A DNA stretch of 51,517 nucleotides, counting the filler, from Thelocarpon superellum (lineage: Eukaryota): the NCBI GenBank assembly GCA_026025795.1. It is 2 parts of 2 records of this genome, joined end to end, with 100 filler letters (N's around TTAATTAATTAA, not from the genome) between each part and the next. Parts side by side here need not be neighbours in the genome. Positions count along the whole stretch, not along the records: positions 1 to 25,761 come from JAPEUG010000265.1; 1 more part is not named here. One strand, 5' to 3'. Shown piece after piece: positions 940 through 45,450 of this stretch (positions are counted from its first letter, which is position 1; every line of letters begins with the position of its first letter). The notes under the pieces were generated by a model, which saw nothing but the letters and a program-made list of their open reading frames with translations, made no database searches and had not been told where the DNA came from. The translations under genes were made by a program, and so were the position numbers.

Positions 940-993
940 CATCGAGCAAACATCGCGCATCGAGCATCCGAACATTGAGTATCGAGCATCAAG
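940..993 (+). repeat. Degenerate 7-bp tandem repeat (CATCGAG-like, about 7 copies) upstream of the first gene
   Basis: catcgag/catcgcg/catcgag/catccgaa/cattgag/tatcgag/catcaag read directly from the sequence. Confidence 0.6.
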
Positions 994-1143
994 CGTGTCA
1001 CTATCCGTCTACAGCCTTACATGAGAACAAGCTACCTCAACCTCCGGGAGGTCTTTCATCCAGTGTGGACACCACCCCCTCACCATCCCACCTTCTACCA
1101 CCCCATATATTCGCTCAGCGAGCGCCGCAGACCTACTGCCGCG

Positions 1144-1986
1144 ATGATGAGCGCCGGCTCGCCCAGCCCCGTTGCCACTTTCTCGCCAACTCCAGTTTCG
1201 GTCGCGACTACTATGGCTCCAACGGCCGCGGCCTTTCCCTTCTGCTCGAGGGCGCTTCTCCTCGCACACCAGCCGCGGGTCGTGTCCATGGTGCTCTATC
1301 CTGTCCTGTTTGTCGCCATCGTCCTGCTGATTGCGGCCCTCTTCGCCTTAATCCCTGGCGTGCCCCGCGATGAAGATGAGATAGATGAGAGTCGGGGCGC
1401 TCCTATCTCGGTCAACGTCATGCCTCCGCCTGCCACCGCCACCGCGCCGAAGAGACAACCCGCTCGAGGTGCCTGCAACTGGCGCTTGTTCATCTGGATC
1501 GCCAACCGGCCCTGGAAAGCCATTCTCTCGACCTTACTCGGAACGATCATCTTCGCCGGGATCGTCACTTCGCTGCTCTTCAACGCCATGGCGATTGAGG
1601 CCTTGATCTACTGTCCCACCTTTACTCCGAACGGTACGGAGCCCCTCCTCTGGGTCGGCTTCTTTGCCTTGGCAATCGGGGGCGCCCTGGCCTTTGACGG
1701 ATGGGTCAATATATGCCTCACCCTCATCCGCGGATCGCCACCGCCGCGCCAGCCATGGCATTATACGCCGGGAACGAGCGTAGTCATGATTTACGGCCTT
1801 CTCCTGGCGCCCTTCTTCGTCGTCTTCTGGCTGGTTTGTCGGCGCCCTAGTTGGAAGGACGTGAAGGCCGCCGTTCGCTCGAAGCGGGACTCAGCCAGGA
1901 ACTGCATCTCTAGGAAGTCGGAGACCCCCTCGACCCAAGCCCCAGAGGAGATGCCAGAGATCTCCAGAAGCCGGACAGCGGCATAG
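1144..1986 (+). CDS. Hypothetical multi-pass membrane protein (about 4 TM)
   Basis: Long intronless ORF (1021..1986). Likely start is ATGATG at 1144. Hydrophobic segments VLYPVLFVAIVLLIAALFALI, ILSTLLGTIIFAGIVTSLLF, LLWVGFFALAIGGALAF, VVMIYGLLLAPFFVVFWLV. No family recognised. Confidence 0.6.
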   Translation: MMSAGSPSPVATFSPTPVSVATTMAPTAAAFPFCSRALLLAHQPRVVSMVLYPVLFVAIVLLIAALFALIPGVPRDEDEIDESRGAPISVNVMPPPATATAPKRQPARGACNWRLFIWIANRPWKAILSTLLGTIIFAGIVTSLLFNAMAIEALIYCPTFTPNGTEPLLWVGFFALAIGGALAFDGWVNICLTLIRGSPPPRQPWHYTPGTSVVMIYGLLLAPFFVVFWLVCRRPSWKDVKAAVRSKRDSARNCISRKSETPSTQAPEEMPEISRSRTAA

Positions 1987-2273: not shown

Positions 2274-3479
2274 TCATGGTGTATCTGGGGGGAGATCCTC
2301 ATGATTAACTCCGGGATCTACACCAACGTCCCTATGGCCCCCATGGCGTTGCGCCGCGGGCGCCAGAAAGTCCCGGACCCAGTCCGCGACTCGCTTGACC
2401 TTTGAGACTCGCGGGTCATCGGCTCCTGGTTTCGTAAGATCCAGGCATTGCGTGCGCCAGAGATGATCGCCGGAATCCAGTGGCTCTCGATGAAGCAGGA
2501 GAAGCTTCGTCATGCCGCGGTGTAGGGACTGTCCGTGGACCTTCGCCCGGAAGCAAGACAGGGCGATATTGCGCATCAGGACCACATCGCGTAGTCGCAG
2601 GGAACCCATCACGATCCTCAGTGCATCCTTTTGCAAGGGCGAAAGCCAGATGCTGATTCCAAAGCCAGCCCTCGTCTCGTCGCCCACGAGCATCTCGACA
2701 ATCTCCATCTCTCGCCCGGCCATCCGGGTCCGGATCAAGCGGGGCGGGCCGATGGAGATGATCCCGACGATCAAATTGACCGTCATCGTCTGAGGCGCGA
2801 TGGAATCGAGATAGTGGGCGCTGGGGATGTCTTGAACGTTGCTCAGCTGGTTGACGGCTGGGACCTGTCGGAGCATCGTCTCGTTGTGCCCCAGGGGTAG
2901 AGGCTGAGGTGGAGCTTGGTTAGTCTCGTCCCCATTGCTCGAATTGCTCGTCGAGAGGGATCCACATGACAGACTGGACCCCCCTTGACTTTCCACCAAC
3001 GAGGTCTGCGCCGTCGTCGCCGCCAATGAACCGTGCAAATTCCAATCCGAGGACTCTTCAGAGGAGAGGGCATTATCATGAACAGCCAGAGAATGATCGT
3101 AGAATTGCGATAGAGAATTCTCGTCTGGTCTTATCGAGGCCTGACTGATGGCATTCGACCCGTCACGGTCAGCGCCTGTCGATGAGAAGGATAGCTTCGC
3201 AGTGGTGAAGAAAGAGGCTTGTGATGGATCGCCCGAGCCATAGCCCGACGGTTCTTCGCCTTCGTCCCCGCCTCGTGCCAGCTGCATGAGCCCGGACGGC
3301 ACCTCTTGGCGCTCCGATGGTATGCCGCGCCAGGTGGGCCAGGCGGGGAGTGCCTGGCCAGGTCTTTGCCGTCCAGCGTAGACGGATTCGGGCTTTATCA
3401 GGTCTTCTTCCCGCCAGCTAAGGGCGGCAGCGTCCGGGGCGCCCGTGAGGAAGATAAGCTTCGGTCGATTCACGGCCAT
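2274..3479 (-). CDS. OB-fold nucleic-acid-binding protein resembling shieldin subunit SHLD2 (N-terminal motif, Ser-rich linker, first OB fold)
   Basis: Intronless ORF, start MAVNRPKLIFLTGAP at 3479. C-terminal region TVNLIVGIISI..IVEMLVGDETRAGFGISIW..RDVVLMRNIAL..VHGQS has an OB-fold strand pattern. The middle region is low-complexity. Confidence 0.75.
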   Translation of the reverse strand: MAVNRPKLIFLTGAPDAAALSWREEDLIKPESVYAGRQRPGQALPAWPTWRGIPSERQEVPSGLMQLARGGDEGEEPSGYGSGDPSQASFFTTAKLSFSSTGADRDGSNAISQASIRPDENSLSQFYDHSLAVHDNALSSEESSDWNLHGSLAATTAQTSLVESQGGSSLSCGSLSTSNSSNGDETNQAPPQPLPLGHNETMLRQVPAVNQLSNVQDIPSAHYLDSIAPQTMTVNLIVGIISIGPPRLIRTRMAGREMEIVEMLVGDETRAGFGISIWLSPLQKDALRIVMGSLRLRDVVLMRNIALSCFRAKVHGQSLHRGMTKLLLLHREPLDSGDHLWRTQCLDLTKPGADDPRVSKVKRVADWVRDFLAPAAQRHGGHRDVGVDPGVNHEDLPPDTP

Positions 3480-3891
3480 CGGCTGCATCACCTCCTCTGA
3501 GTCGATCACTTGGATTTGCGAGCCTCAAATCGTCAACGTAAATGGCAACGTTGATGTTGTACATTCATAAATGCGGCTCGAGTTGTCGAGGCGATGGAAT
3601 CCTTGAACGTGTCGTGTTACTCCTACGAAGTACATAACCATCTCTCTAAAGTTGAGCGGCCATCGAGATCTATTTACTGACGTATGATGGCTTTCAAGCC
3701 GTGAAGCCATATGGGACGCGTCCCTCGAGTCAAAGCTGAGCCACCCGAAGATTTCTGTCTGCGAAGTCCGACAGTCGGCTCTTTGGCCTTTCGTTACAGG
3801 GAGGGATTAACGAAAGTCTTGGCCGTTCCCAGGTCAGATACTCGGACCATACGAGGGTAACCCGCGGAGACTCTCGCTAGGTGGACGTGGT

Positions 3892-3924: not shown

Positions 3925-4253
3925 TGGTTAAGCTGTCGCGTCCCGTCAATGTCATCTCCACATCAACGTATTGCTATATAGACCGTGACACCGCTGCTGA
4001 CGGCTTTATGGCGCTCTTAAGTGCACAGCTAGGAGCGTGGACGCTTACGCAGGCTGCAACGTCGTTGCTCGCGTGATTCGTAATCACTACACTCGCACCA
4101 AGTGTTCAAAGGTGTCTTGACCGAACAAAATGACGTTGGACGGTGGATGGAGTGATAAGCTTGGCGACGTTCTTGTGTCTGGACGTGGAGTTCCAGTGGT
4201 AGATCATTTTACAGATTCGTGGTTGAATCCTGTTGTTCCCTCCCATGTTCAGG

Positions 4254-5371
4254 ATGGCAGCTTCGTTGAAATCGCTTTACCGAAAGGTGCAACCGCTCTT
4301 CGTACCTGCTTCGTCCTCCTCGAACCCTAGAGATCCCAACGGATTTCAAAAGGTCGCAGCGGCGTCCGCTCTCTTCCCCACGGTCGACCCAGCCGTGGAT
4401 GGTCCGGACTGTAACAAGGACTGCGCGAGTTGCACGATTCAATACCCTGCTAGATTTCGCATCGACGAGAGCGATCAGCTCTACGGCCAGGTCAATGGGT
4501 GGACGACGCACGTGCTCGTGGCCACGGGCAAGACAGATTGGGTCAAACACGTCGTGGATGAGCAAGGGAGTGTGATGGAAGCTCTGGGAAAGGGTGGTGT
4601 GAAACCAAAGAATGGGGTCCGTCGACCGTGCCTGCTCAAGAGCACCATCAGCCACGCTCTCACTGACGCGCCTAGCAGGATTTGATGCTCTCCGCGTCCA
4701 ACATACCACCGCCGGAAGAATATTATGCAGCCTCGCCAGGCCGTCAGCCCACAACCGTCCTGGTTCTCCCCTCGTTCACTCTGGTGGACAACGTGACGCC
4801 GCAAGATGTCCCGGAGCTGATATCGGCCTTCGTTGACACTGGCCCCACAACGACCAGTCCTATGATCCCCTCCACCGGCCCCAACCCCGCTCAGGAATTC
4901 GAGAATGCAAGCGGGGTGGCACACGACATCGCATCGGCTGCTCCAGCTCTGCCGCGGCCCTCCTCAGACTCGAACCTCACCGCACGCCGCTGTCCGCACC
5001 AATACCTGATTCTGCTGTGTTCCCAAAAGACACGCGACGTGCGCTGCGGGCAGTCGGCCCCACTCCTCCGGCGCGAGCTGGAGCGGCACCTGCGACCGCT
5101 AGGCCTCTACCGCGACCTAGACGACGACCGCCCAGGCGGGGTGGGCATCTACTTCATCAGCCACGTGGGCGGGCACAAATACTCCGCCAACATGATGATC
5201 TACCGCAAGCACGACGTGGGCGAAGCCTCGCAGGCCATCTGGCTGGCACGCATTCGGCCCGAGGACTGCGAGGCTATCGTCAAATATACCGTGTTGCAGG
5301 GCAAGGTCGTCAAGCCGCTGACGCAGCTGAGGGGCGGTTTTGATCGAGAACGCGGGGTGGTCAGTTGGTGA
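4254..5371 (+). CDS. APD1: Sucrase/ferredoxin-like thioredoxin-fold 2Fe-2S protein (Apd1 type)
   Basis: Exons 4254-4616 and about 4679-5371 (intron GTCCGT..CTGAC..CAG). N-terminal CxxxCxxC (DCNKDCASC), HVLVATGKTDW, CX8C (CSQKTRDVRC) and HVGGH ligands typical of Apd1/Aim32. Confidence 0.9.
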
Positions 5372-15720: not shown

Positions 15721-17706
15721 TCACAGTGAAGAATTCCACAGGCGCACGGGGAAGTCTTGTGCCTGTATCTCGCGCAGCGGACCGTGGTAATTCTTACGGC
15801 CGTAGACCATCCAACAGAGAAGGGCGAAGATGAGGGCGGCGCCAAACAAGAGACTGGCGTAGTTCATGTTGACCGGCGTCACGGGCTGGTAGGTTGGGAA
15901 GAAGAGGAAGACGCTGGTGAAGGCGACAAAGGCGATGGCCACGCAGTTGATGGCAAGTCCAAAGCGGCCCAGTCGCCATGGCCCCCATGGCACGGGCTTG
16001 GGCCCCATGCGTCGGAGCGCAATCACGATGATGGGCGTGATGTAAGAGATATTCAGCACCGAGGTCGTGAATGAGATGACGGCGCTGAAGGCCGTGGTCG
16101 AACCGAGGTTACTGGACAGTTCACGCATCAGCGTTGGGTCATATACTTCCGCAACGGAGTCATCCTTACATGAGGCCCCAGAGGAAACTGAGACAGACAA
16201 TGAGCGTCACGGCGCGATGAGGAACGGCGCGTTTGGGGTCGACCTGCGAAAGGTACACCCGTCAGCCATCGACATCACGGCACGTCCAGCAAAGGATTCG
16301 GCGTACATGGGCGAAATATTTGGAAAAGGGGATGCCGCCATCTCGTGAAAAGGCCCATGTGACCCGGGATGCTGCCGCCAGCTGGCCTAAGATGGCGAAG
16401 CAGACGCCCGAGATGACGAGCGCAGTCATGGCGTTGGTGGCGGCCAAGGAGCCGGTGGTGTTGTAGAAGATCTGGATCACGGGATACCCGGTGGGCGTGC
16501 CCAGGACCGAGTTTACATCCCCAATGCTGTACAGGAGGACGAGGAGGAAGCCAAACGCCAAGGCGCCGTCGAGAAGCATGGTATACATCATGGCCCGAGG
16601 GACCACCTTGGACGCATTCTGCACCTCCTCGCTGATATGGCACGCGCAATCGATGCCTGGCGTGGCGTATGGCGTCAGTGCAAGGAACGGTCCTGCCGGA
16701 TCCAGAGTGCTCACCACTTAGCGCAAACAGACTCGTGGTGAGCCCAATCAACCACGAGACACCGTTATTATCCCAACCCGAGTCATTGTCAAAGGTTGCG
16801 AAGACGTAGTGGTTTGCGCTCTGGGGCGCCAAGTAGACCAGCGGCACGATCAGGATGAAGAAAAAGGCGACGTGCAAGACCAGGGCCGCACTCTCCAGAT
16901 ATGGCAGGATGCGGATGCCGTAGACGTTGATCAGTCCACCGGCGATGAGGATGCCCCAGTACAAGAGCGAGGCCTGCCAGCGTTGGGGGACGTAGTCGGG
17001 ATTGTTCAATGCAATCAGACCCTGAATCTCCGTTGCGGCCAAAGAGGAGGCGGCCGAGCAGCCCGAGGACCATCCGATGACCAGGAGCCAGCCTGCACTC
17101 GTCAGTGACTGACGCGACAGGATGACGCAGGGACGCCTGTACCAGCAAAGAAGCTCAGCGGAGCGGACCACTTCTCAGGCGCAAACTGAGCCACCCAATG
17201 GTACTGCGCACCCGCGGTCGGCGAGCTGTCCTCCAATTAGTCCACTCACACGGCCTCGGCACATGGCATGGGCGCTTACATGGACGCGAGCTCGGCCATG
17301 GACGCCGTCACGGCCAAGATACCAACCCAGCTGAGCAGGTAGCCATAGACCAAGGACGAAGGGCCGCCGTTGATGAGGCCGGCATTGAAGGAGCTGCGGA
17401 GAGTAAGCATCCACGCTTGATTTGTGCGAGAGGGCGACGCACCTCGCCACTGCTTCCCACGACGCGAGAATGGTACAGGTGAAGGCGACGACAGAGACGG
17501 TGCCAAAATTTCGCTGTGAGTCGTTCAGGAACAGTTTATTGCAGGCAGGGAGGAGCCGCTCTTACCTTCAGCTGCTGCCTCTTTCCTGCGCGGGCCAATG
17601 CCCAAGCGTCCAGATCGTTTTGCGTTGGATTTTCGCTTTTGGGGCCCGTAGTGCTGGGCATGGAGTCAGGCACGCCTCGGTGGCGCATTTCCACACCGTC
17701 CGCCAT
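15721..17706 (-). CDS. Amino acid/choline/GABA permease (APC superfamily, ACT family)
   Basis: Eight exons joined by canonical introns: GKRQQLK|RNFG..ASWE, NGGPSSLVYG..MAELAS, SPTAGAQYHWV, HISEEVQNA..VPRAM, SRVTWAFSRDGGIPFS, GSTTAFSA, GPWRLGRFG, NMNYA. Confidence 0.93.
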
Positions 17707-22155: not shown

Positions 22156-23518
22156 ATGAAGGGTACGCGGTCACCATCGCTGTCGTGCGTGCACTTGACG
22201 CTGATCATCCCGCCCTCTCAGCGCTCATTCTGGTCGGCGGGTTTGGCACCCGTCTACGGCCTCTGGTCCGTCAATGACCTCCCGACCAGTTGGCTAGCCG
22301 CCAGAAAGGACGGTGGAGCACAGTGACTGACCTCGCGGTAGACTCTCACGCTTCCCAAGCCCTTGGTCGAGTTCGCCAACCGTCCCATGATTCTCCACCA
22401 GATTGAGAGCTTGGCCGCGGCCGGGGTCACCGACATCGTCCTGGCCGTCAACTATCGCCCCGACATCATGGTCCGAGCGCTCAAGAAGGTTAGTCCCGGG
22501 CGATCAGGGACCCGTTGGCGCTCCCAGGTTGGCCCCACCGGCTGACCACGCGGGTGCGGGCAGTACGAGGAGGAGTTCAACATCAAGATCGAATTCTCCG
22601 TCGAAACGGAGCCGCTGGGCACCGCCGGACCCTTGAAGCTCGCGGAGAAGATCCTGGGCAAAGACGATTCGCCCTTCTTCGTTCTCAACTCCGATGTCAT
22701 TTGCGAGTATCCGTTGGAACAACTGGCCGCCTTTCACAAGGCACACGGTGAGGAGGGTACCATCGTCGTTACCAAGGTGGAGGAGCCGTCGAAATATGGT
22801 GTCGTCGTCCACCAACCCAACCACGCAAGCCGCATCGACCGTTTCGTGGAGAAGCCGGTGGAGTTTGTGGGTAACCGGATCAATGCGGGCTTGTACATCC
22901 TGAACCCCTCCGTCCTCGAGCGCATCGAGCTCCGTCCGACGTCGATCGAGCAGGAAACCTTCCCGGCCATGTGCAAGGACGGCCAACTCCATTCCTTCGA
23001 TCTCGAAGGCTTCTGGATGGATGTCGGGCAGCCGAAGGATTTCCTCAGCGGCACCTGCCTCTACCTCTCGTCCCTCACCAAGCACGGCTCCAAGCAGCTC
23101 ACGCCGTCCTCGAAACCCTACGTGCATGGCGGCAACGTCATGATCGACCCGAGCGCCAAGATTGGCAAGAATTGTCGGATTGGGCCGAACGTCACCATCG
23201 GTCCTAACGTGGTCGTCGGGGACGGGGTCCGTCTGCAGCGTACCGTGCTGCTATCGGGCAGCAAGGTCAAGGATCACGCCTGGGTGAAGTCGACCATTGT
23301 GGGCTGGAACAGCACGATCGGAAAGTGGGCACGGCTGGAGAACGTGTCGGTCCTCGGGGACGACGTGACGATTGGGGATGAAATCTACGTGAACGGAGGA
23401 TCGATCCTACCGCACAAGACGATCAAGCAGAATGTGGACGGTGAGTCTGGGCGCGGTCCGCGATTGCGACTACTTGCAGCTGACGCCCTCCACCGAAGTC
23501 CCGGCCATTATAATGTGA
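22156..23518 (+). CDS. MPG1: Mannose-1-phosphate guanylyltransferase (GDP-mannose pyrophosphorylase)
   Basis: Exons 22156-22162, 22222-22265, 22342-22488, 22564-23440, 23499-23518. [52 protein letters not shown], hexapeptide repeats, ends VPAIIM (PSA1 ortholog). Confidence 0.97.
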
Positions 23519-24069
23519 TTCAATCTTTGCTCCTTCTTCAACAAGGGCCGGCAACAAAAATCCCCACTCTTGCCGGCGAGGTGCTCGTTTCTTATCTGTT
23601 CTGTGGCCTTGGGGTTCTCGTTGATCTCTGCCACCATCATTCCCAGCATCTCAGTAGCCATCGCTTCATAGCCGTGCGCAACGAGCCTTTGATGGTTTCC
23701 GATTGCATCTTGGGTGATTGACATGGACCTTAAAAGCAATGATCGAAGCATTCTCTTCAGCCGAGGATGACGGGCTTGACTGGTTCCGTCGTGGCCGCAG
23801 GTGCGTTGTAGGGCCTTGAAATGTAGATCGGCCCGGCCTCGAAATGGTTTACACGACAATGCCCCAACTCTGAGTGAACTCACTTCTCTTGTGTTCTGCA
23901 CGATCGCAGTTTCTTATCTCTCCCTCCAAAACATCTGTGCAGCAGCCGCCACGATGAACATCACCGTCCCCAGTCTGTGCGGTGCCCGTCCATCTCTCGG
24001 CTCCTTCGGTCAGGATCGACTTCGCTCCTCGTGGTACTCTTCCGGGCACCTGTGCTCCAGTAGCGGACA

Positions 24070-25902: not shown

Positions 25903-27268
25903 ATGATGGCGGCGCCGGCCAAATCCACATTTGCCGGCCTGGGGGTGCATCCATGGCTGGAAGCTTCCCTCCGATCCATGGCCATCACCAGGCCTACAGG
26001 TATTCAAAAAGGATGCATCCCTCCCATTTTGGAGGGACGAGATTGCATCGGTGGCAGCCGCACCGGGTCAGGCAAGACCATGGCCTTTACTGTGCCCATC
26101 CTCCAAAAGTGGGCCGAGGATCCGATCGGCATCTACGCTCTGATCCTCACTCCGACAAGGTACGCCCCGACGCAAGGATCTGAGGGGTGCGACTGATGAA
26201 GATCTACACAGAGAACTGGCGCTGCAAATCTATGAACAGGTCAAAGCCATCTCGGCACCGCAGTCATTGAAGGCGCTCCTCATCACAGGCGGGGCAGACA
26301 TGAGAGAACAGGCGCTTGGGCTCTCGCGGCGACCGCACATCGTGATTGCAACGCCAGGACGCCTGGCCGACCACATCCGAACGTCGGGTGAAGATACCTT
26401 TGGTGCTCTACGACGGGTCCATGTGGTAGTCCTCGACGAGGCCGATCGCCTCCTCGACAGCGGGCAAGGCAGCATGATTCCCGATGTCGAAGAGTGTCTC
26501 TCCGTCCTTCCCACGCCCCACACTCGACAGACGCTTCTGTTCACGGCGACGGTGACACCTGAAGTTCGGGCACTCAAGGAGCGCCCCCGGCCTGCTGGTC
26601 GACCTGAGGTCTTCGTATGTGAGGTGGACACCGAGCACTTGGCCATTCCCCCAACCTTGGACCAAAAGTACCTGCAGACGCCCGTCACGCATCGTGAAAG
26701 CTTCTTACACATTCTCTTGCTGACGCCAGCAAACGTGGACAAGTCCATCATCATCTTCTGTAACCGAACCGCCACGGCGAACCTACTCAGCCATCTCCTC
26801 CGTCTATTAGATCATCGCGCCACCGCCTTGCATTCTCTCCTCCCTCAACGTCAACGTGTCAACAATCTCGCGCGCTTTCGGGCCTCGGCAGCCCGAATTC
26901 TCGTCGCCACGGATGTCGCCGCACGTGGTTTGGATATCCCCGAGGTTTCTTTGGTGATCAACTACGACGTTCCTCGCGACCCGGACGACTACATCCACCG
27001 CGTCGGTCGAACCGCCCGAGCAGGCCGGAAGGGTGAGGCCGTGACGTTCGTTGGACAGCGAGATGTGCAGTTGATCCTTGCGATCGAGGCACGAGTGGGA
27101 CGGAAGATGGAGACCTACGAGGAAGAGGGTGTCAGCATCGAAGGTCGCGTGCTCCGGGATGGACTGAAGATTGTGGGCGAAAAGAAGCGAGAGGCTGCCC
27201 TCGAGATCGAGGAAGGCCGAGAAGTTGGCGGAAAGCGGAGGAAGAAGATGAAGAGTCTGATGCGATGA
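25903..27268 (+). CDS. DBP8: ATP-dependent DEAD-box RNA helicase Dbp8 (18S rRNA biogenesis)
   Basis: Exons 25903-26159 and 26212-27268. Q motif [68 protein letters not shown]. '[11 protein letters not shown]', 'W.EDP.GI' and 'TAT' are typical of Dbp8. Confidence 0.93.
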
Positions 27269-34423: not shown

Positions 34424-36734
34424 TCAACGCTTTCGGCCCCTGACGCTCAACGGGCCCTTGTCCCCCATCCCCAGCGCTCTGCGACAGTCGGGACAGTACC
34501 ATTTCGTCGTGCGACCGGGGGTGTCTTCGAGACCGACGCATTCGAGATGGAACCATTCGCGCTCGCACTGGAACAGAAGATCATCGAGTCAGCATGGGGC
34601 CAGGGATGGAGAAGAGACGGGGCAGAAGCAGGCTACTCACGTCGTTGTTCTCGCACGCAATCATGGTGCCGAAACTGACGTCGCCGCACACGCAGTAGGT
34701 GGGTTCGTTGGGATCGATGGGCATGTTGTCGCTGTCGGATTCCTCCTTCTCCGCCTTCTCCTGCGCCTGCTTCGATCCGCCCTTGCGCCGTGGTGGCGCC
34801 TTTCTCGTGCCAACGCTCACGGCTGCTCCGCCTTCCGCGCTCTCTTTGACGAGGCCGGGCACGGGACGTCGGGATCTGCGCACCGCTGGACGCGTGGGCA
34901 AGGCTGGCTCGTTCAGCTTGATGCTGATGGTGCTGGCGCGGCGCGGACGGTCACGGCCGACGGTGCCGGGGGTGTTGGTGGGCGTAGCGGTGGAGAAGCG
35001 GGAGCCTCGGCGAGATGCTTGGGCGTGCGCGTGTGCGTCGCCAGAGCCAGCCTCTGGCTTGACGGACGTGCGGCGCGCATGGCTGGTGGGTGCTGCGGTG
35101 GTAGCTTTCTTGTCTGCCGAGGGCGTGGAGGCCTCGTCGCTTCCTGGGGCAGCTAAGGAGACCTTGGCCGTTGTGGAGGCCGTGGAAGCGGCAGGCGCCT
35201 CGCGCTTCCGCTTCTTGTCCTTGGCCTCCGCCGTCGGAGCGATGCCGTCGGAGCTCCGCGAGTCGTCCCGCTTCCGCTTTCTCGACGGCGTGGTCGAGTC
35301 GCGGCCACGGCCTCTTCCGGTGCTGGGACTCAGGATGAGACTCTCGTCTCCTTCTTCGCCCCGTCGAAAGATGGCCTTGAGGGCACTGCCGGAGTCGGCT
35401 AGGCGGCGGGCAGCCTCCTCGGCTTCGACGGCGGCCTGGGCGGCCTGCTCCTTCTGCTGGTTCTCTTTCTTGAGCTTCTTGGCCTCGTTGAGCTTCATCC
35501 CGCGGTTGCTGAGTTGCAGCTCCTCCATGCCCAACGAGTCCACGCTGATCTCTCCTTCCTCGAGCTCCTTCTTCTCCCCGAGCCGCGCGTTCTCCGCGAT
35601 GTTGGCGTGGTCGACAAACGGCTCCCCCGTCGCATCCGATCGAGCCTTGGCGGCGTGGTAGTTGTCGGGCCCGCGGCCCAGGTCGGCGAGCTCCCGCCGG
35701 ATCATCGTCTCGCTGGGGTTCCACACCGCATTCTTCTTCATCCGCTTCCGGAGCTTGGCCATCTCGTAGGGGGTCAGCTTCAGCCACGGGGCGTCTTCGC
35801 TCCCAGCCACCGCGTTCTCCGGCGGTTTCTTCAAGAGCGCGAGCGCATTGCTGGTCGAGATGCCTGCGACGGCACTATGAACGTTGGTGCCCATCGCCCC
35901 CGGCGGTCGCCGGCTGCCCGCGGGGTTGGGAAGCTTGAGCTTAGGGAGCTTCGGCAGCTTGGGGCCCTTGGGGGCCTTGGGGATCTTGGGGATCTTGTAG
36001 CTTGCGGCGTTGTGCTTGCGATCCCGCCGCGAGTGACCAGCGCCGCGAGACTCCGCCACTGGCATGGGCGACGGAGGCAGCGATTGCCATTCCGAGTCCG
36101 ACGACACGGGCGAGTCAAGGGTTGGTGGGGGTAGCACTTCGCCGGGAACCGTGATGCGTCGATGTCGACGCTTGTCCCTCTGTCCTTGCGCACTTGGTCG
36201 GGCCGCATTCGCGGAGCGCGCCCCATCGAGGCGGAGGGTGATTCGCGGCAAGGGGACGTCGTCGGCATCGGATCGTCGGCGACCGCCTTGCCGGAATCGT
36301 GGAGAGGTGGTGGACGGCGGGACGGGGGTGGGATCGCGCGAGGGAGGCTGCGGAAGGTCTCGAAGTTTCGAGATGATGCTGCTCAGACGGTTGAAGTGGC
36401 GGTCGACGACATCGTAGAGGCGCGAGGCCTCAGCATAGGCCGACTCGCGCGTGCTGATGGCGCGCGTGAGGTGCCGCGAGATCTGACGGCGGATGTCCTG
36501 CGGCTCGGGACGGACGTCGACCGGGATGGACGGGAGGGTGCCATAGGTCTTGGTGAGATGATGCAAGGCCGAGGAGGACTCGAGGTACGTTTCGTCGAGC
36601 TTGCGCACGAGGGTCAAGGAGCGGATGAGATCGGAAGGGAGGTATTCCGTGTAGTCGAGGAAGTCGGTCACGGTGGCCTGCGCATCGGGATCCGACGGCG
36701 CAAGCACCGTCATCTCACTCAACGCGTCCGACAT
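34424..36734 (-). CDS. Long ING-family PHD-finger chromatin protein (about 745 aa)
   Basis: Exons 36734-34641 and 34567-34424. N-terminal ING-like helix [20 protein letters not shown]-terminal [45 protein letters not shown]. Confidence 0.9.
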
Positions 36735-37847
36735 GGACGACCGGTCAGGCGGCGGTGCCGCCGCGGACCAAGAGAGTCAAGACTCGATGTGTTGATCAGG
36801 GGTGGGCGCACTGTCTCGTTCAGAGGCGCGCATCACTGGAAGCAAAGCAGAGGCTGCCTTGAAAGCGTCGTGGGAGGCACTGCGAGGCAATGGATCACGA
36901 TCGCGATATGCCATCAACGCCGGTGTTCAACGCTAGTCGCACACTTGTGTGGTCCTGCCCAACATGCGGAAGCTAACGCTTTTGGGCGCTCGCTTGTGCT
37001 TACGCGCACGTTTGCTTACGTGAATCACACATCATACAGCACACAGCAATAATACAGTGGTTTTGTGAGAGATCTGTAACACTAACATACCAGGACCACG
37101 ACCCCGCCGCTTCCACTCAGTCACGCAAGTACTCAGGCTCAGAGCGAGAGCTACCAACGCATCTGTGTTACTGGCAGACATGACGTCAGGAAGGCTTCCA
37201 TGACATCTAGGTGATTTGCTGTAACTGTTTACGATTGGGCTATTAAGTCAAGTGAGACAACCGACACAGCTCTTCGTGCCTCCATGTAACCATCAGCTCT
37301 TACCAGCCAGTGACGGGCTCGACAGGTTCATGCTAAAAGACTTCTGCTGGATATTGGCCTACGTGTCATTCGCGCTCTCCATCCCACTTCGTGGCCATGC
37401 TCTCTTGCCGAGATCCTATCTTTGACAAGCATCTTGCACTTCTCACTTTCCACTCCCATACGAACTCCGTACAACCAGTCCAAGTTTGCCTTGACCTAGC
37501 CTGCCAGTGCGAGATGACTTAATCAAACACGGCGTGACACTCCTCTGTCGTGCTGAACCACTCCGCTTGAAGCCATCAGGTTGCATCTGCTGCGGAAAGC
37601 GGAAAGTGCTTCGAACAGGGACCTGACCCGACGCAGCTGTCACGATTGGCAAAATCGAAAGGGTCCATTGGGGGGACGAACTTCCTGTCCGAGCCGTTCA
37701 CGGAGAGGAGCGACATTGTGATCGAACTCGCGCAACTGGTGAGACTTCTGCGTGAGAGTCACCAAGCCAGGCACTAACAACACACCATCACACTTTGAAG
37801 AAAACAAGCCAGCACATCCTTCTACGGCATCTGCGCGCGCAGAAGAT

Positions 37848-39630
37848 ATGATCCAACCACAGCCACCCGCGACTATGGAGGCAATGGGGTTTCCCCTCGC
37901 CCCTGCCGAATCTCCAGAGCAGGAGCTCATATCGATTCACCACCTGGGATGGCTCTCCGAAGTGAACGACACCTTTTGCCCGCTCAAGGCCGTGCAGAAG
38001 TATCCCTACAAGCACCTCAGCAAGGCGCTCAAAGGTCCCGTTTCAGATGCGTTCTTTGCTGGAGGCAAATTCTGGAAGCGACATTGGAACATGTGAGTGA
38101 TGCCGTGTTATTCCAAGAGACGTGGACTGATGTCGTTTATCCCCGTGGCGATGCGATCGGTTCTGACGGTTCACCCTGCGCAGATACTACGTGTATCCCC
38201 CACAATTCACCGACACAAAGCCTCTTCTCTTGCTCCCGGCCCATCAGGTGGACGCTTTCTTCGAGTTGATCAACACGAAACTTAGGACGCGCCTCCACTT
38301 CCCCGAACCCTCCGAAGAGCCTGGCTTTCTCCTGCACTTTAGCGACGACGGCACGCCACGACCACGCTTTCTTGGCCGCTGCAACTCCAAGGCTGGCTTC
38401 GAAGAACTAGAGATGATGATGCCTTCGGAAGATTTCCAGCCAGAGCCTAACCAGGCGAGTGGGATCCAGCCCTCGGAACGTTCTCGCGAGGCCTGGCGTC
38501 GCAAGATGGAACATGCCATCAACGCTACGAAGAACAAGAAGCAGGCCGTGCGCAATAAGAAGCGCGAGGAGCGATACAAACGCCAGCGTCGTTGGGGTCA
38601 ACAGCTGAAGCGCGCCCAGCGCTACCTGGGACTTCGATCTCGGCGCGACGATGTCGATGCTTTGCCCCTCGCTTCCTTGTCCGTCAACGCCGACTCCCAT
38701 CAAACCTCCGCCGACTCCGTTCAGGCCTCCACCGGCGGGGATCCATGCATCAACGGCGAGCTGACCGGAACGGCTGCCCACTCCGCGGGAGGGGAGACTA
38801 GCCCTCAATGCTTGGATCTGGACCGGCCCGCGCCGTTTGCCTGCGAGTCGGACGTCGTCATCATTTGCGTGGACATCGAGTCCTACGAGCGCAACCACGA
38901 TCTGATCACGGAGATCGGCGTCGCTACCCTTGACACTCTCGATCTTGCCGGCGTCCCCATTGGACAAGAGGCAATGAACTGGATGGAGAAGATCCGAGTC
39001 CGCCATTTCCGCATCCTGGAGAACGCGCATCTGAAAAACAAAAAGTACCTGACCGGATGCCCCGAAAATTTCGAGTTTGGCGAGAGTGAGTGGGTTTCGA
39101 TCAAGGATGCGGCGCAGGCACTGGCGTCGTGTTTCCAGGATCCATTCTCGCGCTCCGATCTCATCGATACCCGCGTCACGACTCCGACGAAGCGAAACAT
39201 CGTGTTGCTCGGGCACGACACCCAAACGGATATCAACTACATGCGCAAGGTGGGCTACAATCCTCTGAACAACCCGGCGCTCCTCGAAGTCCTGGACACG
39301 GCCGCGCTGTACCAGTTCCACACACGCGACGTGCAACCGCGCCAGCTCGGTATGATCATGTACGACCTGGACCTGATCGCGTGGCATCTGCACAACGCCG
39401 GCAACGACGCGGCGTACACGCTGCAAGCGATGATTGGGATCTGTCTGCGCGACGTCCAAGGCACGGGAACCAGCAAGGCGGCGCGCGAGCAGCTGGCGGC
39501 CGTACGATTAGAAGACGCCCTCGACGCTGCCGGGCAGCAGACGCTCGACGAGAATGGTGGCTGGAGCTCGGCCGGGGACGGGACTGACGGCGGAGACCCC
39601 GAGCCTCCGGTCCTACCTCCCTCCCCCTAG
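37848..39630 (+). CDS. qip: QDE-2-interacting protein (QIP)/Gfd2-YDR514C-like DEDDh 3'-5' exonuclease
   Basis: Exons 37848-38092 and 38184-39630. The start is uncertain; an upstream intron-like GTGAGA..ACTAAC near 37739-37778 suggests an extra exon. Motifs ICVDIESYE..ITEIG, GCPENFEFG.SE, LGHD..TD, HNAGNDA; N-terminal FCP..AV.KYPYK..FF..GKFW. Confidence 0.8.
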
Positions 39631-40741: not shown

Positions 40742-43110
40742 TTAGGCTGTGGCGTTTGTCATGTTGGAGTGAAAGGAGCCGATAGGTTCGAAGCCTCTGT
40801 GCGGTGCATTAGCTCTCGTTTCTTCGACGGCATTCACCAAGGATAGACCGACCGAGCGAGATCAATTCCGCCACCGCCACCGCCACTGCCACTGCCACCG
40901 CCACCGCCACTGCCACCGCCGCCACCTCCAACCTCCTCGACCCCCTCTGTCTCATCGTGAGCCGCCTTATCCTCCACCTTGACTTCAGGCTTCTCCTCGG
41001 GCTTTTCCGCCTCGACCTTCACCGGTCGTGGCTGGGCGGCCTTTGACGGACTGGCGGGGTCCTTTCGCCCAATGGCGGCTGGCGGGCTGCTGCTCTGCGG
41101 CAGGCCGGGCCCGATGCTCTTGGAAGGGCTGAGGTCCGCCATCGGCCTCGCCGGCGTACTGCCGAGGTCGACATACTTCCAGAACGGGGCCGGCGAGCTG
41201 GTGGGCATGTACGTGGAGGGGACTTGCGCCGTCGATGGGGGGGCAAGTCGAGGATGTTGTCGTCGAGGGGCCGGGGTGATCATCGGTTGACCATCGTCCA
41301 GGTACGCCGAGGAGGAGAGCGTCGGCGGCGAGCCCGTCACGTTCTCCGAGAGTCCGTACGTGCCCATCATCGCATCACGCGTGCGTGATGGAGGCAAGGG
41401 ACTGCCGTCGTCGAAGTCATGCGAGCTGCGGTCGGCGGCCCGACGCGACAATGACATCCTCGATCCGCGGTCCGGCGTGTACGCTTCCTTGGCGGCGACG
41501 GGGTAGGACGACAGTGGCGGAGGCGTGACCGACGTGGACGAATGCTTGACGCGAGTCTCATCGGGTCCCGCGCCGTAACCCGCCTGGCCGCTGCTGTTGG
41601 GCACCACCGAGGCTTCCTTGGTGGCAGGCGAGCTGGGCGCGGACGATCCACGATTGCCGCCCTTGCCCGTGGGCCGAGTGCCGCGCTTATTGAACTCGTC
41701 GCGGTGCTGGGGCACGATCTGCCACTTCATGCCCTTGCCGGGTTCATCGGTCCGTCGCGGAATCTTCTCAAAGGCCTTGTTGAGGGACAGGTTGTGCCGA
41801 ATCGAATTCTAGCCTGGGTGAGCCTGATATCCAAGCAGAAGGCGCGGGGGAAGAAAACGTACCTGCCAGCCGGATTGAGAGTGTCGGTAGAAGGAATACT
41901 TCTCCATAATCCAACCGTAGATATTGTTCAGCGTCAGTTTCTCTTCGTCACTCGCCAGGATGGCCTGTCCGATCATGGTGGCGTAGCTGTACGGTGGCTT
42001 CAGATCCTTGGCCGAGTCCAGGCTGTAGTCAATCTCCTCGGTCGATTCGAGCATCATGCCGCGATTGTAGGCCGGCGATTGCTTTGGTCGACCGTCCACG
42101 TCGCTCCCCCGCATGCCGACAGGTGTACTCTGGCGCTTGTAGTCCGGTGGGGCCGGGGCCAAAGGCACGGGACCCGAGGATCCGTAGTGCATCAGGCCGC
42201 CTGGCGGCTGGGGGGACGACGACCGCGGTGCGGGCCCAGCTTCGGGATGAGCATGGCCGTGGCCATATGATGCTCCGTTCTCGTCATTGCCCACCTGGCC
42301 GCGAACCTTTTGCAAGAAGATGGGGTGGATGTGCGGGCCGTCATCCGGGGTGACGAACATCATCTGCGTGCCTCCAATCTCCAAGACATCGCCGCTCCGT
42401 AGGTCGAGGGAGGCGCCGCGCTTGAGGGATTGGTCATTCACCCGCACGCCATTTCTTCCATTGACGGATATGCGCCAGCTCGTGGGGCCATCGGAGCGAT
42501 ACTCGATCATGGCATGCTGCCTCGACACGAGCTTGCTGGGGCCGAGATCGATATGCACGATCGAGTCGGGATTGTCGGCGCCGGGACTGGATTGCGGAGG
42601 GTGCGAGGGATCGTAGGCGGGTTGGATCGGGTCGGGGGGCCGTCCGATGTTGACCTTCAGGGACTTGACATAGTAGGTCCAGTTTACGCCGGACACCTTG
42701 GCGTACGCTTGCACTCCATTCTTGTATTCGCGCTCGAGCTTCGAGTTCGCGTGGTCGATGGCCACCTTGACCTGCTCGGGCGCGGTGGTGAAGCTGGCGA
42801 CGACAGCGTTGATCAAAGCCTCAGGGCCGCTAATGGCCTCATCCGGTGCCTGGCCCTCCCCATTTTGGCGGGTCGAGGAGTCCTCGGCCGACCCGGGTTC
42901 TGCCGGATCGACGGTATCAGTCTGCGGGAGCACGTCAGCCGCAACCTGGGGAAGAGCAGCGAGGGTGTGGCGAGCGGTGGGGGAGTGCTGTACCCGTCTT
43001 CGCTTTCTCGCCGGTCGCGACGGAGAGGAATCTAGGAGGGTCGGGTCGGATGCGTCGTGGGTGTCGACATCCCTGCGGGTTCGCGTCCGGCGAGCGGATG
43101 ACGGAGGCAT
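40742..43110 (-). CDS. FKH2: FHA + forkhead transcription factor (Fkh1/Fkh2/Sep1 type)
   Basis: Exons 43110-42994, 42921-41863, 41808-40853, 40796-40742. [36 protein letters not shown]. Forkhead: [34 protein letters not shown]. Poly-Gly (GCCACC repeats) near the C-terminus. The FKH1/FKH2 distinction is not meaningful outside yeasts. Confidence 0.92.
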
Positions 43111-44542
43111 GGTGGGCGTGGGTTGTCGCCGCCCCTGGAATAATCTGCGCTAAGATTTTCGACGATCAGTGATTGCTTTCGACGATGCACCGTCTAAACG
43201 TCCGCGGTTGCGTCCATGGACGAGTCTAGATGCCGGAGGCGGTGGAGCAGGCGCAGGGTGCAGTGTGCAGAGTCCAGTGTGCAGAGGAGAGTGTGCAGAA
43301 GGCAATGTTGACACCAGGCCAACTTTGGCGAGCGGTCGGGCGGGCGAAAGAGCAAATAGCGGAGGTGAGTGAATGATGTGAACTTACGGCCGGTGCGCCT
43401 TAACCAGGACGGTCAGTCTGGGGAAGGGGCTATCACTTCTGATGATGATGATGGTGATGAAAACAATGACAAGGGAAGAGTCGTCGCGATCACTGCCAAA
43501 GGGGAAGGAGATGTGCCGACGAGAATTTGAGGTGGTGGACGTGGGTGTTGAGGGCGAGCTGGATTCGGCAGTACGAGTGCAACAGTCCCCGAGCGGCGAC
43601 GCGAAGGGAAGAGCGAGTGCGCGTGAGCGTGACCGTGAGCGTGAGCGACGGGCGCACGCGATGATGCGTTGCAACACTCAAGCCCTCAGTGGCGCATTCG
43701 ACGCTTCGATTACAAAGCCCAAATCCCGAGGATAATGTTTCCCTGCATCTCGCACCTTGGATGAAGACAGAAGTCGTTGAGGCCGCAGGCGTCGGTCCGC
43801 GGACAGGTAAAATCACTGCGCAACCCGGCTGGGTCTACAATGGTTTGTCGAGTAGTTATGGACAAGGTCAATCACCGGAAGCGTACAGTCCTCGTCCCAA
43901 ATCGCTTCGGCTGCTCCTATTGGTCTGTTCCTTGATCGTGACCACGACGACAACACTAAGCCAATGCGAGAAGGCAAGGGAGCCAATGCTCGTCACGGCG
44001 CCGCGTTACTTGTCATTCGCACACAAAACCTGGACTTGCAGGAGCACAGCGGCTCTCAGGGGTCTTGACCGTTCTGGCCATCCACCGGTTTGTCTAATGT
44101 CACCACCACGATGCGTCCCCGGTGGGTGTGAAGATGCAGCCGATTGCGAGGCTCGCTTGCTCAACAAGGTGCTGCACCCAAGTCGGGGGAAAGACACAAG
44201 TATGCCCTTCCATGTGTTCGTGGCAGGCGATCTCTGATGGTGTGTCTTGGGGAGCCTCCGCTCGAGCCACCCAGCGGCTCTGACCAAGCTTGCAGGTACG
44301 ATGTACCAACTTGGAACCCGCGATCTCGGCCCCGACTCTGCTGTCTTCGTCGAGCGGAAAGTTCATGGCGATTAGCGGTTCAAACCTGGATGGAGCGATT
44401 GTTTACGGACCAGTGGGAAAGGTGGCTCAAGGTGGCCAATGAGTTAGACGTTGTAAGCGCGGTGCGCATCCTTAAACAAGCTGGAGTAACGTCATATGGT
44501 ACGTGATTTGACATCCGTCGCACTGGGACGAACATTAAGAGC

Positions 44543-44744: not shown

Positions 44745-45450
44745 CCACATACCGATAGGTCATCGTTCTCGTCCTCTTGGTCGACGTCGACCTCGACACT
44801 CCCACGCTAATCCAAGCACCACATGGATGGCTTGTCGTCGTCCCGTACTCTGTAAGTGAACTAATGGTCGGCACCACAGCGCGCCTAGCAATGACATGGT
44901 TGATCGGTGGATGACCCATGTCATGCCGCTGCCTCGAGCATGTGTACGAGTATAAGAGCGGTGCGGGATGGTACCAAGTAGACGAAGGAAGCCACAGTTT
45001 GGGTGGGGAGCAGCGACAGCGGACAGCGGACAGCGAAAGGCGAAAGGCGAAATGCGAAACGCAATTGTCAGCACCGACTAAGGCCGCCGCCCACTGGCGA
45101 TGGCGAGACTGGCGATGATCCAAATGACGCCAGCGACCAGAGTGACTCTGGCCGTCGTTGGAGCCCTCTGTACACTACTCCGTCCCTATCGCGCGGGACA
45201 GACTAGTAACTAGTTACCTGCATACTTGCACTGCGTGCTTGCAGTGTGCATACTGATGCCGTTGTCAGTAAATCCGTCACCCGCGACTACGTACGAGTAC
45301 CATCGTAGTCGGCCCAAGAGCCCTGCCCCCGGTGCACCAGCCAGGCCCTAGGGCAACGTTCCAGAGACCAGAGATCGCATCGGTGCTCACGTCGCGCCTC
45401 TTCGCCCCCCTCTCTCGTCCATCGGGAGCGTCCATGCACCCCCGCACGAC

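Follow-up and report, generated by a model that had tools for sequence, protein, structure and literature searches.

A predicted single-stranded DNA-binding protein of filamentous fungi with a single OB fold and a possible SHLD2-like layout

A conserved single-exon gene and the modules of its product

The window analyzed here is a 51,517-nucleotide stretch of DNA from Thelocarpon superellum (GenBank assembly GCA_026025795.1), in which parts of two records are joined by 100 filler letters. Near the start of the window, in the part from JAPEUG010000265.1 (positions 1–25,761), the minus strand carries a single-exon coding sequence for a 401-residue protein and its stop codon (positions 2274–3479). 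The protein combines a conserved N-terminal motif pair, a disordered linker and one OB fold, and it is predicted to be a single-stranded DNA (ssDNA)-binding adaptor with a possible likeness to SHLD2 of shieldin. The coding sequence was defined by open reading frame (ORF) reading, by a 100%-identical database protein of 401 residues (P0002) and by tblastn matches in related loci. It starts with an ATG codon at positions 3477–3479 and ends with a stop codon at positions 2274–2276, and its product begins with MAVNR. An alternative in-frame ATG codon, located 9 nucleotides upstream (positions 3486–3488), would add three residues. In the tblastn analysis of 80 related metagenome loci, residues 6–9 to ∼400 are matched as a single segment in most loci, which fits an intron-less gene.

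The ORF is confirmed as a real conserved gene. A chance ORF is ruled out because a word-index search yields 450 homologues at E ≤ 1e-3, with a best foreign match of 1.1e-73 at ∼37–42% identity, and because an exhaustive search yields 545 representative clusters at 50% identity, 493 of which are found at E ≤ 1e-10. Most of the word-index matches cover 91–99% of the query. The 401-residue protein itself exhibits no Pfam match at E ≤ 10 and no PDB sequence match.

A sequence-only reading of this locus had quoted several short strings from the protein and had claimed that an N-terminal block, a long disordered linker and a single OB-fold-like domain follow one another. The quoted strings are all located in the translated protein, including KLIFLTGAP at residues 7–15 and PTWRGI at residues 48–53, and the claimed layout, with an OB fold of the ssDNA type, is borne out by conservation and by an AlphaFold2 model. 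The model was built from a 116-sequence alignment and has a mean predicted local distance difference test (pLDDT) score of 70.6 and a predicted template modelling (pTM) score of 0.62. All of the features of the protein described below are encoded on the minus strand.

The N-terminal motif pair consists of two blocks that are defined by conservation. Block 1 (residues 7–28; positions 3396–3461) contains a hydrophobic run followed by x-G-A-P and xxxx-L-x-W, in which four hydrophobic residues at 8–11 precede the invariant G-A-P. Block 2 (residues 46–66; positions 3282–3344) follows the pattern P-x-W-R-x-[LIV]-P-L-x-R-Q-H-L-x-T-G and displays an alternating W50-R51-x-[LIV]53-x-L55 arrangement. The G13, P15, L20, W22, W50 and R51 residues are invariant in all 53 N-termini that were read directly from DNA. 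Short profiles were searched against 291 relatives that contain at least 140 residues ahead of the OB fold, and they recovered block 1 in 280 relatives (median start residue 4) and block 2 in 232. The printed relatives in which block 1 is missing have the appearance of gene models cut short at the N-terminus. By a strict pattern, both motifs are present in 113 of 289 sequences, with the second motif 29–66 residues after the first. Loss of the N-terminal block from orthologues had been named beforehand as a finding that would count against a shieldin link, and this objection falls because the block is kept in orthologues.

In the full-length model, the N-terminus has pLDDT values of 59–73 and forms short strands at residues 11–12 and 51–52. 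When the N-terminal 72 residues are folded alone, the model contains no sheet and its pTM score is 0.24. A modelled N-terminus without a fold of its own fits a peptide that would fold on a partner. The hydrophobic strand with its G-A-P motif is not a P-loop, as no G-K-[ST] follows it, and the length of the hydrophobic run, merely 4–5 residues, argues against a signal or transit peptide. The best PDB match of the N-terminal profile is chain S of 6nzo (residues 621–658, K-W-R-S-L-P-I-E-K-Q), a fungal Set2/histone-lysine N-methyltransferase, with E values of 0.046 for the whole sequence and 0.23 for the stretch, which corresponds to block 2 (residues 46–66), and a designed protein comes next at an E value of 2.3. 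This sequence likeness may reflect chance or a short motif common to another nuclear protein.

The stretch between the motif pair and the OB fold (residues 64–204) contains 28 Ser residues out of 141 (20%) and is acidic, with 18 Asp and Glu residues versus 5 Lys and Arg residues. Two conserved elements are observed in its N-terminal part. The first is a short S-F-F-T-T block (residues 88–94; positions 3198–3218), in which F90 is at least 90% conserved and which a short profile recovers in 32 of the 291 relatives. The second is a helix with the pattern L-S-Q-F-Y-E-x-S-x-A-x-H-E...S-S-Q (residues 118–143; positions 3051–3128), defined by the model and by conservation. Helix residues 118–141 have block pLDDT values of 89 and 79, and the helix is recovered in 290 of the 291 relatives. 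Its Y127 and S130 residues are kept in 120 of 120 sequences, H134 in 118 and the SQ pair at 124–125 in 112. Given its confidence in the model, this helix may pack on the OB fold. The remaining part of the stretch, a Ser-rich acidic linker (residues 144–204; positions 2868–3050), is assigned as disordered from its composition and from pLDDT values below 50 at residues 144–185 and 197–202.

The OB fold is followed by a helix with the pattern P-Q-x-x-K-x-x-R-V-R-x-W-V-x-x-F-V-G (residues 352–375, helical at 356–371 in the model; positions 2355–2426). This helix is recovered in 288 of the 291 relatives, and its K360 and W367 residues are invariant in a 34-sequence alignment (A1), as is W367 in the full profile (A2). 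The protein terminates in an L-P-P-D-T-Q tail (residues 394–401; positions 2277–2300), in which P397, D399 and T400 each show a conservation of 90% or more. A short profile recovers the tail in 110 of the 291 relatives, and the terminal T-Q is present in 102 of 120 sequences. The T. superellum protein ends in L-P-P-D-T-P, with T-P instead of T-Q; should a kinase act on the terminal T-Q of the family, the site is missing from this species.

Structural and sequence relatives of the OB fold

The OB fold (residues 205–350; positions 2430–2867) is identified by the model and by fold and profile matches, and contains the core P-Q-T-M-T-V-N-L-I-V-G...V-G-D-E-T...W. The strings VNLIVGIIS, RLIRTR, MEIVEMLVGDET, ISIW, DVVLMRNI, GQS and TKLLLL, which had been quoted for this domain, are all present. 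Residues 205–375 are modelled as an OB barrel with block-mean pLDDT values of 78–97, which mostly exceed 90 and range from 86 to 97 over residues 211–340, with lower values at the edges. All 120 sequences examined for conservation carry the W278 residue and aromatic residues at positions 273 and 310.

In structural comparisons, the modelled barrel is closest to DNA-binding OB folds. Foldseek lists the Sulfolobus single-stranded DNA-binding protein (SSB) first (E 6.8e-6, template modelling (TM) score 0.72 by target), followed by POT1, RPA and human SSB1. In VIA-align, the highest scores are obtained for human POT1 OB1 (8sh1; Z 12.3, 132 residues, 3.2 Å) and RPA70 DBD-B (1jmc; Z 12.2, 125 residues, 2.4 Å), and the five-stranded barrel of the latter is superposable. 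Oxytricha TEBP-alpha (Z 11.4), fission-yeast Pot1 (7cuh; Z 11.3), RADX (Z 9.9) and Sulfolobus SSB (Z 9.5) are also matched, as is Ustilago RPA with a Z score of 11.2. A search of 48,161 chains that is independent of Foldseek returns the same order, with Cdc13 at a Z score of 8.1, Stn1 at 7.9 and CTC1 at 7.8. No SHLD2 chain appears in the Foldseek, VIA or VIA-wide lists, for which the presence of a solved SHLD2 OB structure in the library is uncertain.

Sequence comparisons point to the same class. When the A2 profile is compared with PDB sequences, a crenarchaeal SSB (1o7i) is matched with an E value of 7.9e-4, over profile positions 194–246 only. An archaeal RPA-related protein follows at an E value of 0.17, and the other matches are crenarchaeal SSBs alone. 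The SSB alignment matches the V-G-D-E-T core and places the invariant Trp residue of the family opposite SSB residue 56, a Trp residue that we take to stack on DNA bases.

Single members of the family were scanned against Pfam in three overlapping sets of 116, 120 and 40 sequences, and all of the matches lie below the curated cut-offs. REPA_OB_2 is matched by 32 of 116 and 23 of 120 members, and its top score, 21.9 bits (E 1.7e-4), falls short of the 27-bit cut-off. Ssb-like_OB is matched by 13 of 116 and 14 of 120 members (best E 1.5e-4), and the scores shown for the 40-member set are below the 24-bit cut-off. SHLD2_OB1 (PF21669) is matched by 7 of 116, 7 of 120 and 2 of 40 members, with a best score of 18.1 bits (E 0.0023). 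MEIOB_N (2 of 116 and 5 of 120) and POT1 (2 of 116 and 2 of 120; best E 0.033) are rarer. The HROB, RMI, TPP1 and Est3 models are not among the 25 of 30 families listed for the 116-member set or the 21 families listed for the 120-member set. As judged from the profile matches and the model, the fold is of the ssDNA-binding RPA/POT1/SSB class. SHLD2_OB1 is a recurring signal in these scans that is neither the strongest nor significant.

A shieldin-like hypothesis and its alternatives

The function best supported by sequence and model is that of a predicted ssDNA-binding adaptor, in which the termini would dock partners. The most specific hypothesis in keeping with the layout, the N-terminal pattern and a precedent in Cryptococcus is a shieldin-like mechanism, which is plausible. 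The protein would then be an adaptor that acts in DNA-end metabolism, binds ssDNA through its one OB fold and is laid out like SHLD2, a prediction to which we assign a probability of slightly below 0.4. The OB fold would bind ssDNA through the invariant W278 residue and the aromatic residues at positions 273 and 310. The two N-terminal motifs, which are foldless alone, would act as strands that dock by β-sheet addition. Rev7, a HORMA protein, would be the lead candidate partner, perhaps joined by a bridging protein similar to SHLD3 or Njf1, and Rev7-associated activities would be tethered to resected ends so that end joining is favoured. The conserved S/T-Q sites suggest control by a Tel1/Mec1-type kinase.

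As in vertebrate SHLD2 (FAM35A), the ssDNA-binding subunit of shieldin, a putative docking module at the extreme N-terminus of the fungal protein precedes a long disordered linker and an RPA-type OB fold. In the SHLD2–SHLD3–REV7 assembly, SHLD2 strand β1 pairs with β5 of open REV7 (O-REV7) and β1 of SHLD3, and the SHLD2 contact residues are Val7, Ile9, Phe10, Trp11, Lys37, Ile39, Leu41, Tyr43, Leu48 and Leu50; the contacts with O-REV7 and SHLD3 are given as Val7/Ile9/Phe10/Trp11 and Lys37/Ile39/Leu41/Tyr43 (Liang et al. 2020, PMC7181697). At positions that agree with these listed contacts, the fungal N-terminus has a predicted hydrophobic strand at approximately residues 7–11 and a predicted alternating basic/hydrophobic strand 25–40 residues on. 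The fungal motif pair appears to resemble the published SHLD2 contacts, and the human motifs quoted by the sequence-only reading, in position and chemistry over two short, unaligned motifs. Weak SHLD2_OB1 matches recur among the fungal members. In the Atlas, which combines a language model and structure, PF21669 is found on 19% of one Ascomycota cluster of the family; for the two look-alike clusters from Basidiomycota, the shares are 26% and 18%.

Several observations weigh against the shieldin-like mechanism, and the searches detect no significant similarity to SHLD2. The motif likeness between the fungal and SHLD2 N-termini is short, and its human side consists of one paper's residue list and of the motif letters given in the sequence-only reading. 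When PDB sequences are searched at E ≤ 10, no chain of SHLD2 is matched by the A2 profile or by the N-terminal profile (A5), in a search of low power for two short, differently spaced motifs. The PDB sequence set presumably includes the SHLD2(1–52) chain of 6KTO. No SHLD3-like protein is known from these fungi. In the structural study, SHLD2(1–60) is enough for binding, and human SHLD2 needs SHLD3 and REV7 together, with neither bound singly (PMC7181697).

At the other end, RPA, SSB and POT1 resemble the OB fold no less closely than SHLD2_OB1 does, as assessed by sequence and by the modelled fold. SHLD2_OB1 never attains its 26-bit cut-off in any set, its matches are fewer than those of REPA_OB_2 and Ssb-like_OB, and the T. 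superellum protein scanned on its own does not match it at E ≤ 10. SHLD2 contains three OB folds and a C-terminal SHLD1-binding region, whereas the fungal model contains one OB fold. OB_SHLD2_2nd and SHLD2_C (PF22779 and PF15793) are not among the families listed for the 116- and 120-member sets, and a search for longer multi-OB forms yielded none, only the 734-residue fusion with an enzyme described below, which is weak evidence. Membership of the SHLD2 family fails on two tests that define it, namely the cut-off of the Pfam model and the presence of three OB folds. The fungal family also differs from SHLD2 in two additional conserved modules, the SQ helix and the L-P-P-D-T-Q tail. The earlier proposal of an SHLD2 match at both ends is retained in part. 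The motif positions are like those of the published contacts, and SHLD2_OB1 recurs weakly; the N-terminus was aligned by no tool, and the full OB architecture of SHLD2 is not found.

The Cryptococcus neoformans protein Njf1 (CNAG_00817) provides the fungal precedent. As described in a preprint, Njf1 is a lineage-restricted factor that is proposed to act in shieldin-like, Rev7-linked end joining. End joining depends on Njf1, and Rev7, Rif1 and Rev3 are recovered with it on purification, with Rev7 at rank 1 after zeocin and Rev3 at rank 12 (Table S5); the seatbelt of Rev7 is predicted to hold it (10.1101/2024.10.22.619677). Compared by description only, Njf1 differs from the protein studied here in being a seatbelt-bound Rev7 ligand comparable to SHLD3, and an OB fold is nowhere mentioned in the main text of the preprint. 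Its authors could detect Njf1 in basidiomycetes only (10.1101/2024.10.22.619677), which also counts against the shieldin-like mechanism. Shieldin-specific subunits are said to be absent outside vertebrates (PMC11616998; 10.1101/2024.10.22.619677). A literature search found no paper that describes this family or a fungal SHLD2, and the Cryptococcus preprint was the nearest. That the family is a true fungal counterpart of SHLD2 by orthology, present in Dikarya with an SHLD3-like bridge such as Njf1, is doubtful.

The likeness of the OB fold to SSBs suggests another function, in which the protein would sense or mediate ssDNA in general, as simple SSBs do, and the terminal motifs would recruit checkpoint, recombination or replication-restart partners other than Rev7. 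The best sequence matches are in its favour: crenarchaeal SSB (1o7i, 2mna and 7wcg) is the only database match with an E value below 0.001 and has the V-G-D-E-T core, with a Trp residue after it, in common with the family, and REPA_OB_2 and Ssb-like_OB lead the Pfam matches. The top Foldseek position of Sulfolobus SSB, the listing of human SSB1, the conserved S/T-Q sites and the upstream ACGCGT hexamers described below are also consistent with it. This function is nevertheless rather unlikely. In crenarchaeal SSB and animal SSB1 (5d8f), which show ∼20–25% identity, an N-terminal OB fold is followed by a tail and there is no N-terminal motif pair, whereas the fungal OB fold is C-terminal and lies behind a motif-bearing linker. 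The Pfam matches, moreover, are all below their cut-offs, and a simple SSB leaves the likeness of the N-terminal pair to the SHLD2 contact pattern unexplained. RPA70 itself is similar to the fungal protein in the DBD-B fold match and in REPA_OB_2 being the most frequent weak Pfam match, and differs from it in that the fungal family is without tandem OB folds, a zinc ribbon and a trimerisation core.

The fold scores also raise the possibility of a role at telomere overhangs, as an accessory factor of the POT1 or CST type that would bind the G-strand and recruit telomere partners through its terminal motifs. Human POT1 OB1 yields the top structural score, and fission-yeast Pot1 and TEBP-alpha also rank high; a Pyricularia member is named as a POT1/Cdc13-domain protein by one source, and, among foreign clusters with a name in the Atlas, those of POT1 come closest by features (0.79), above the chordate FAM35A cluster (0.77). 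The POT1 score, however, is tied with that of RPA70 DBD-B, the identity to POT1 OB1 is 10–14%, and the Pfam POT1 model is matched in just two members of each of the larger sets. The fungal protein is also without the second OB fold that is used in POT1-type sequence-specific binding, and the Atlas contains separate Ascomycota POT1 clusters. A telomeric role is distinctly improbable on this evidence. Many repair and telomere complexes use a single OB fold as a protein interface, and Stn1 and CTC1 are found lower in the wide search, but it is very improbable that the OB fold serves to bind proteins, like those of TPP1, Ten1 and RMI2, and that the protein itself does not bind DNA, given that every one of the top matches is an OB fold that contacts DNA and that the Trp residue opposite SSB Trp56, the presumed DNA-stacking residue, is invariant.

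Shieldin is commonly treated as a vertebrate invention, and an SHLD2-like docking tip with an ssDNA-type OB fold in fungi would bear on its origin. If the shieldin-like mechanism is true, the origin of 53BP1–Rif1–Rev7 end protection would be testable in Neurospora, Aspergillus and Pyricularia, and the family would give new access to a practical problem of filamentous fungi, the high rate of non-homologous integration that makes gene targeting difficult. Orthology to SHLD2, if true, would help to explain end joining as the main break repair of filamentous fungi. Even without a link to shieldin, the protein represents a large, unnamed and uncharacterised family of probable ssDNA-binding proteins in filamentous fungi, with five conserved modules and no assigned function.

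Distribution, upstream region and neighbouring genes

Where members of the family carry source names, they are termed 'hypothetical', 'OB domain-containing' or 'nucleic acid-binding', and in two cases 'POT1/Cdc13 domain-containing'. Organism names were taken from the best 120–150 matches of each search, which permit no inference on yeasts, and the named organisms among these listed matches are Pezizomycotina without exception. They include Eurotiomycetes (Aspergillus, Penicillium, Talaromyces, Trichophyton and Blastomyces), Sordariomycetes (Pyricularia, Colletotrichum, Neonectria and Humicola), Leotiomycetes (Botrytis, Monilinia, Cadophora and Rhynchosporium), Lecanoromycetes and other lichen classes, and Xylona. 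A search for Basidiomycota relatives with an OB-only profile yields 194 matches, the best 120 of which are all Pezizomycotina or unnamed. In the Atlas, two Basidiomycota clusters resemble the OB part, one of 306 residues (score 0.91, TM 0.76 by query) and one of 247 residues (score 0.85), and are regarded as leads only.

The sole longer relative found is a 734-residue protein of Psora crenata, in which a family member is fused to mannose-1-phosphate guanylyltransferase. A 392-residue Chaenotheca member carries the name of the same transferase (P0255 and P0251 are the database entries tied to these fusion and naming cases). A transferase gene is present in the window at positions 22546–23718 on the plus strand, ∼19 kb from the OB-protein gene. 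The Psora crenata fusion and the Chaenotheca naming probably represent the merging or mislabelling of neighbouring genes.

Upstream of the OB-protein gene, an ACGCGT hexamer, which is MluI-box-like and a weak lead, is located at positions 3716–3721, 242 nucleotides from the ATG codon. ACGCGT marks G1/S DNA-metabolism genes in ascomycetes. Across the family, the hexamer is modestly enriched: it occurs within 500 nucleotides upstream in 12 of 48 non-redundant loci, versus 38 of 641 for other 500-nucleotide windows taken from these loci (p 5.5e-5) and 10 of 90 for control promoters, the regions ahead of other long ORFs (one-sided p 0.03), with loci that are related to one another and controls that are rough. 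In T. superellum, the site lies in an intergenic region that is common with a divergent sucrase/ferredoxin-like gene (positions 4227–5368, plus strand). On the other side, a convergent open frame of 335 codons without a Pfam match (positions 979–1983, plus strand) ends ∼290 nucleotides from the 3′ end of the OB-protein gene.

Among the 98 long frames of the window, none has a HORMA domain. The window also contains an amino-acid permease gene (positions 15724–17174, minus strand), a DEAD-box helicase gene (positions 26144–27265, plus strand), a gene for an ING-domain protein (positions 34584–36776, minus strand) and a DEDDh exonuclease-like gene (positions 38167–39627, plus strand). A forkhead transcription factor with an FHA domain is encoded at positions 40837–43149 on the minus strand and is split over two frames, probably by an intron, and a Zn2Cys6 transcription factor is encoded at positions 45352–47301 on the plus strand.

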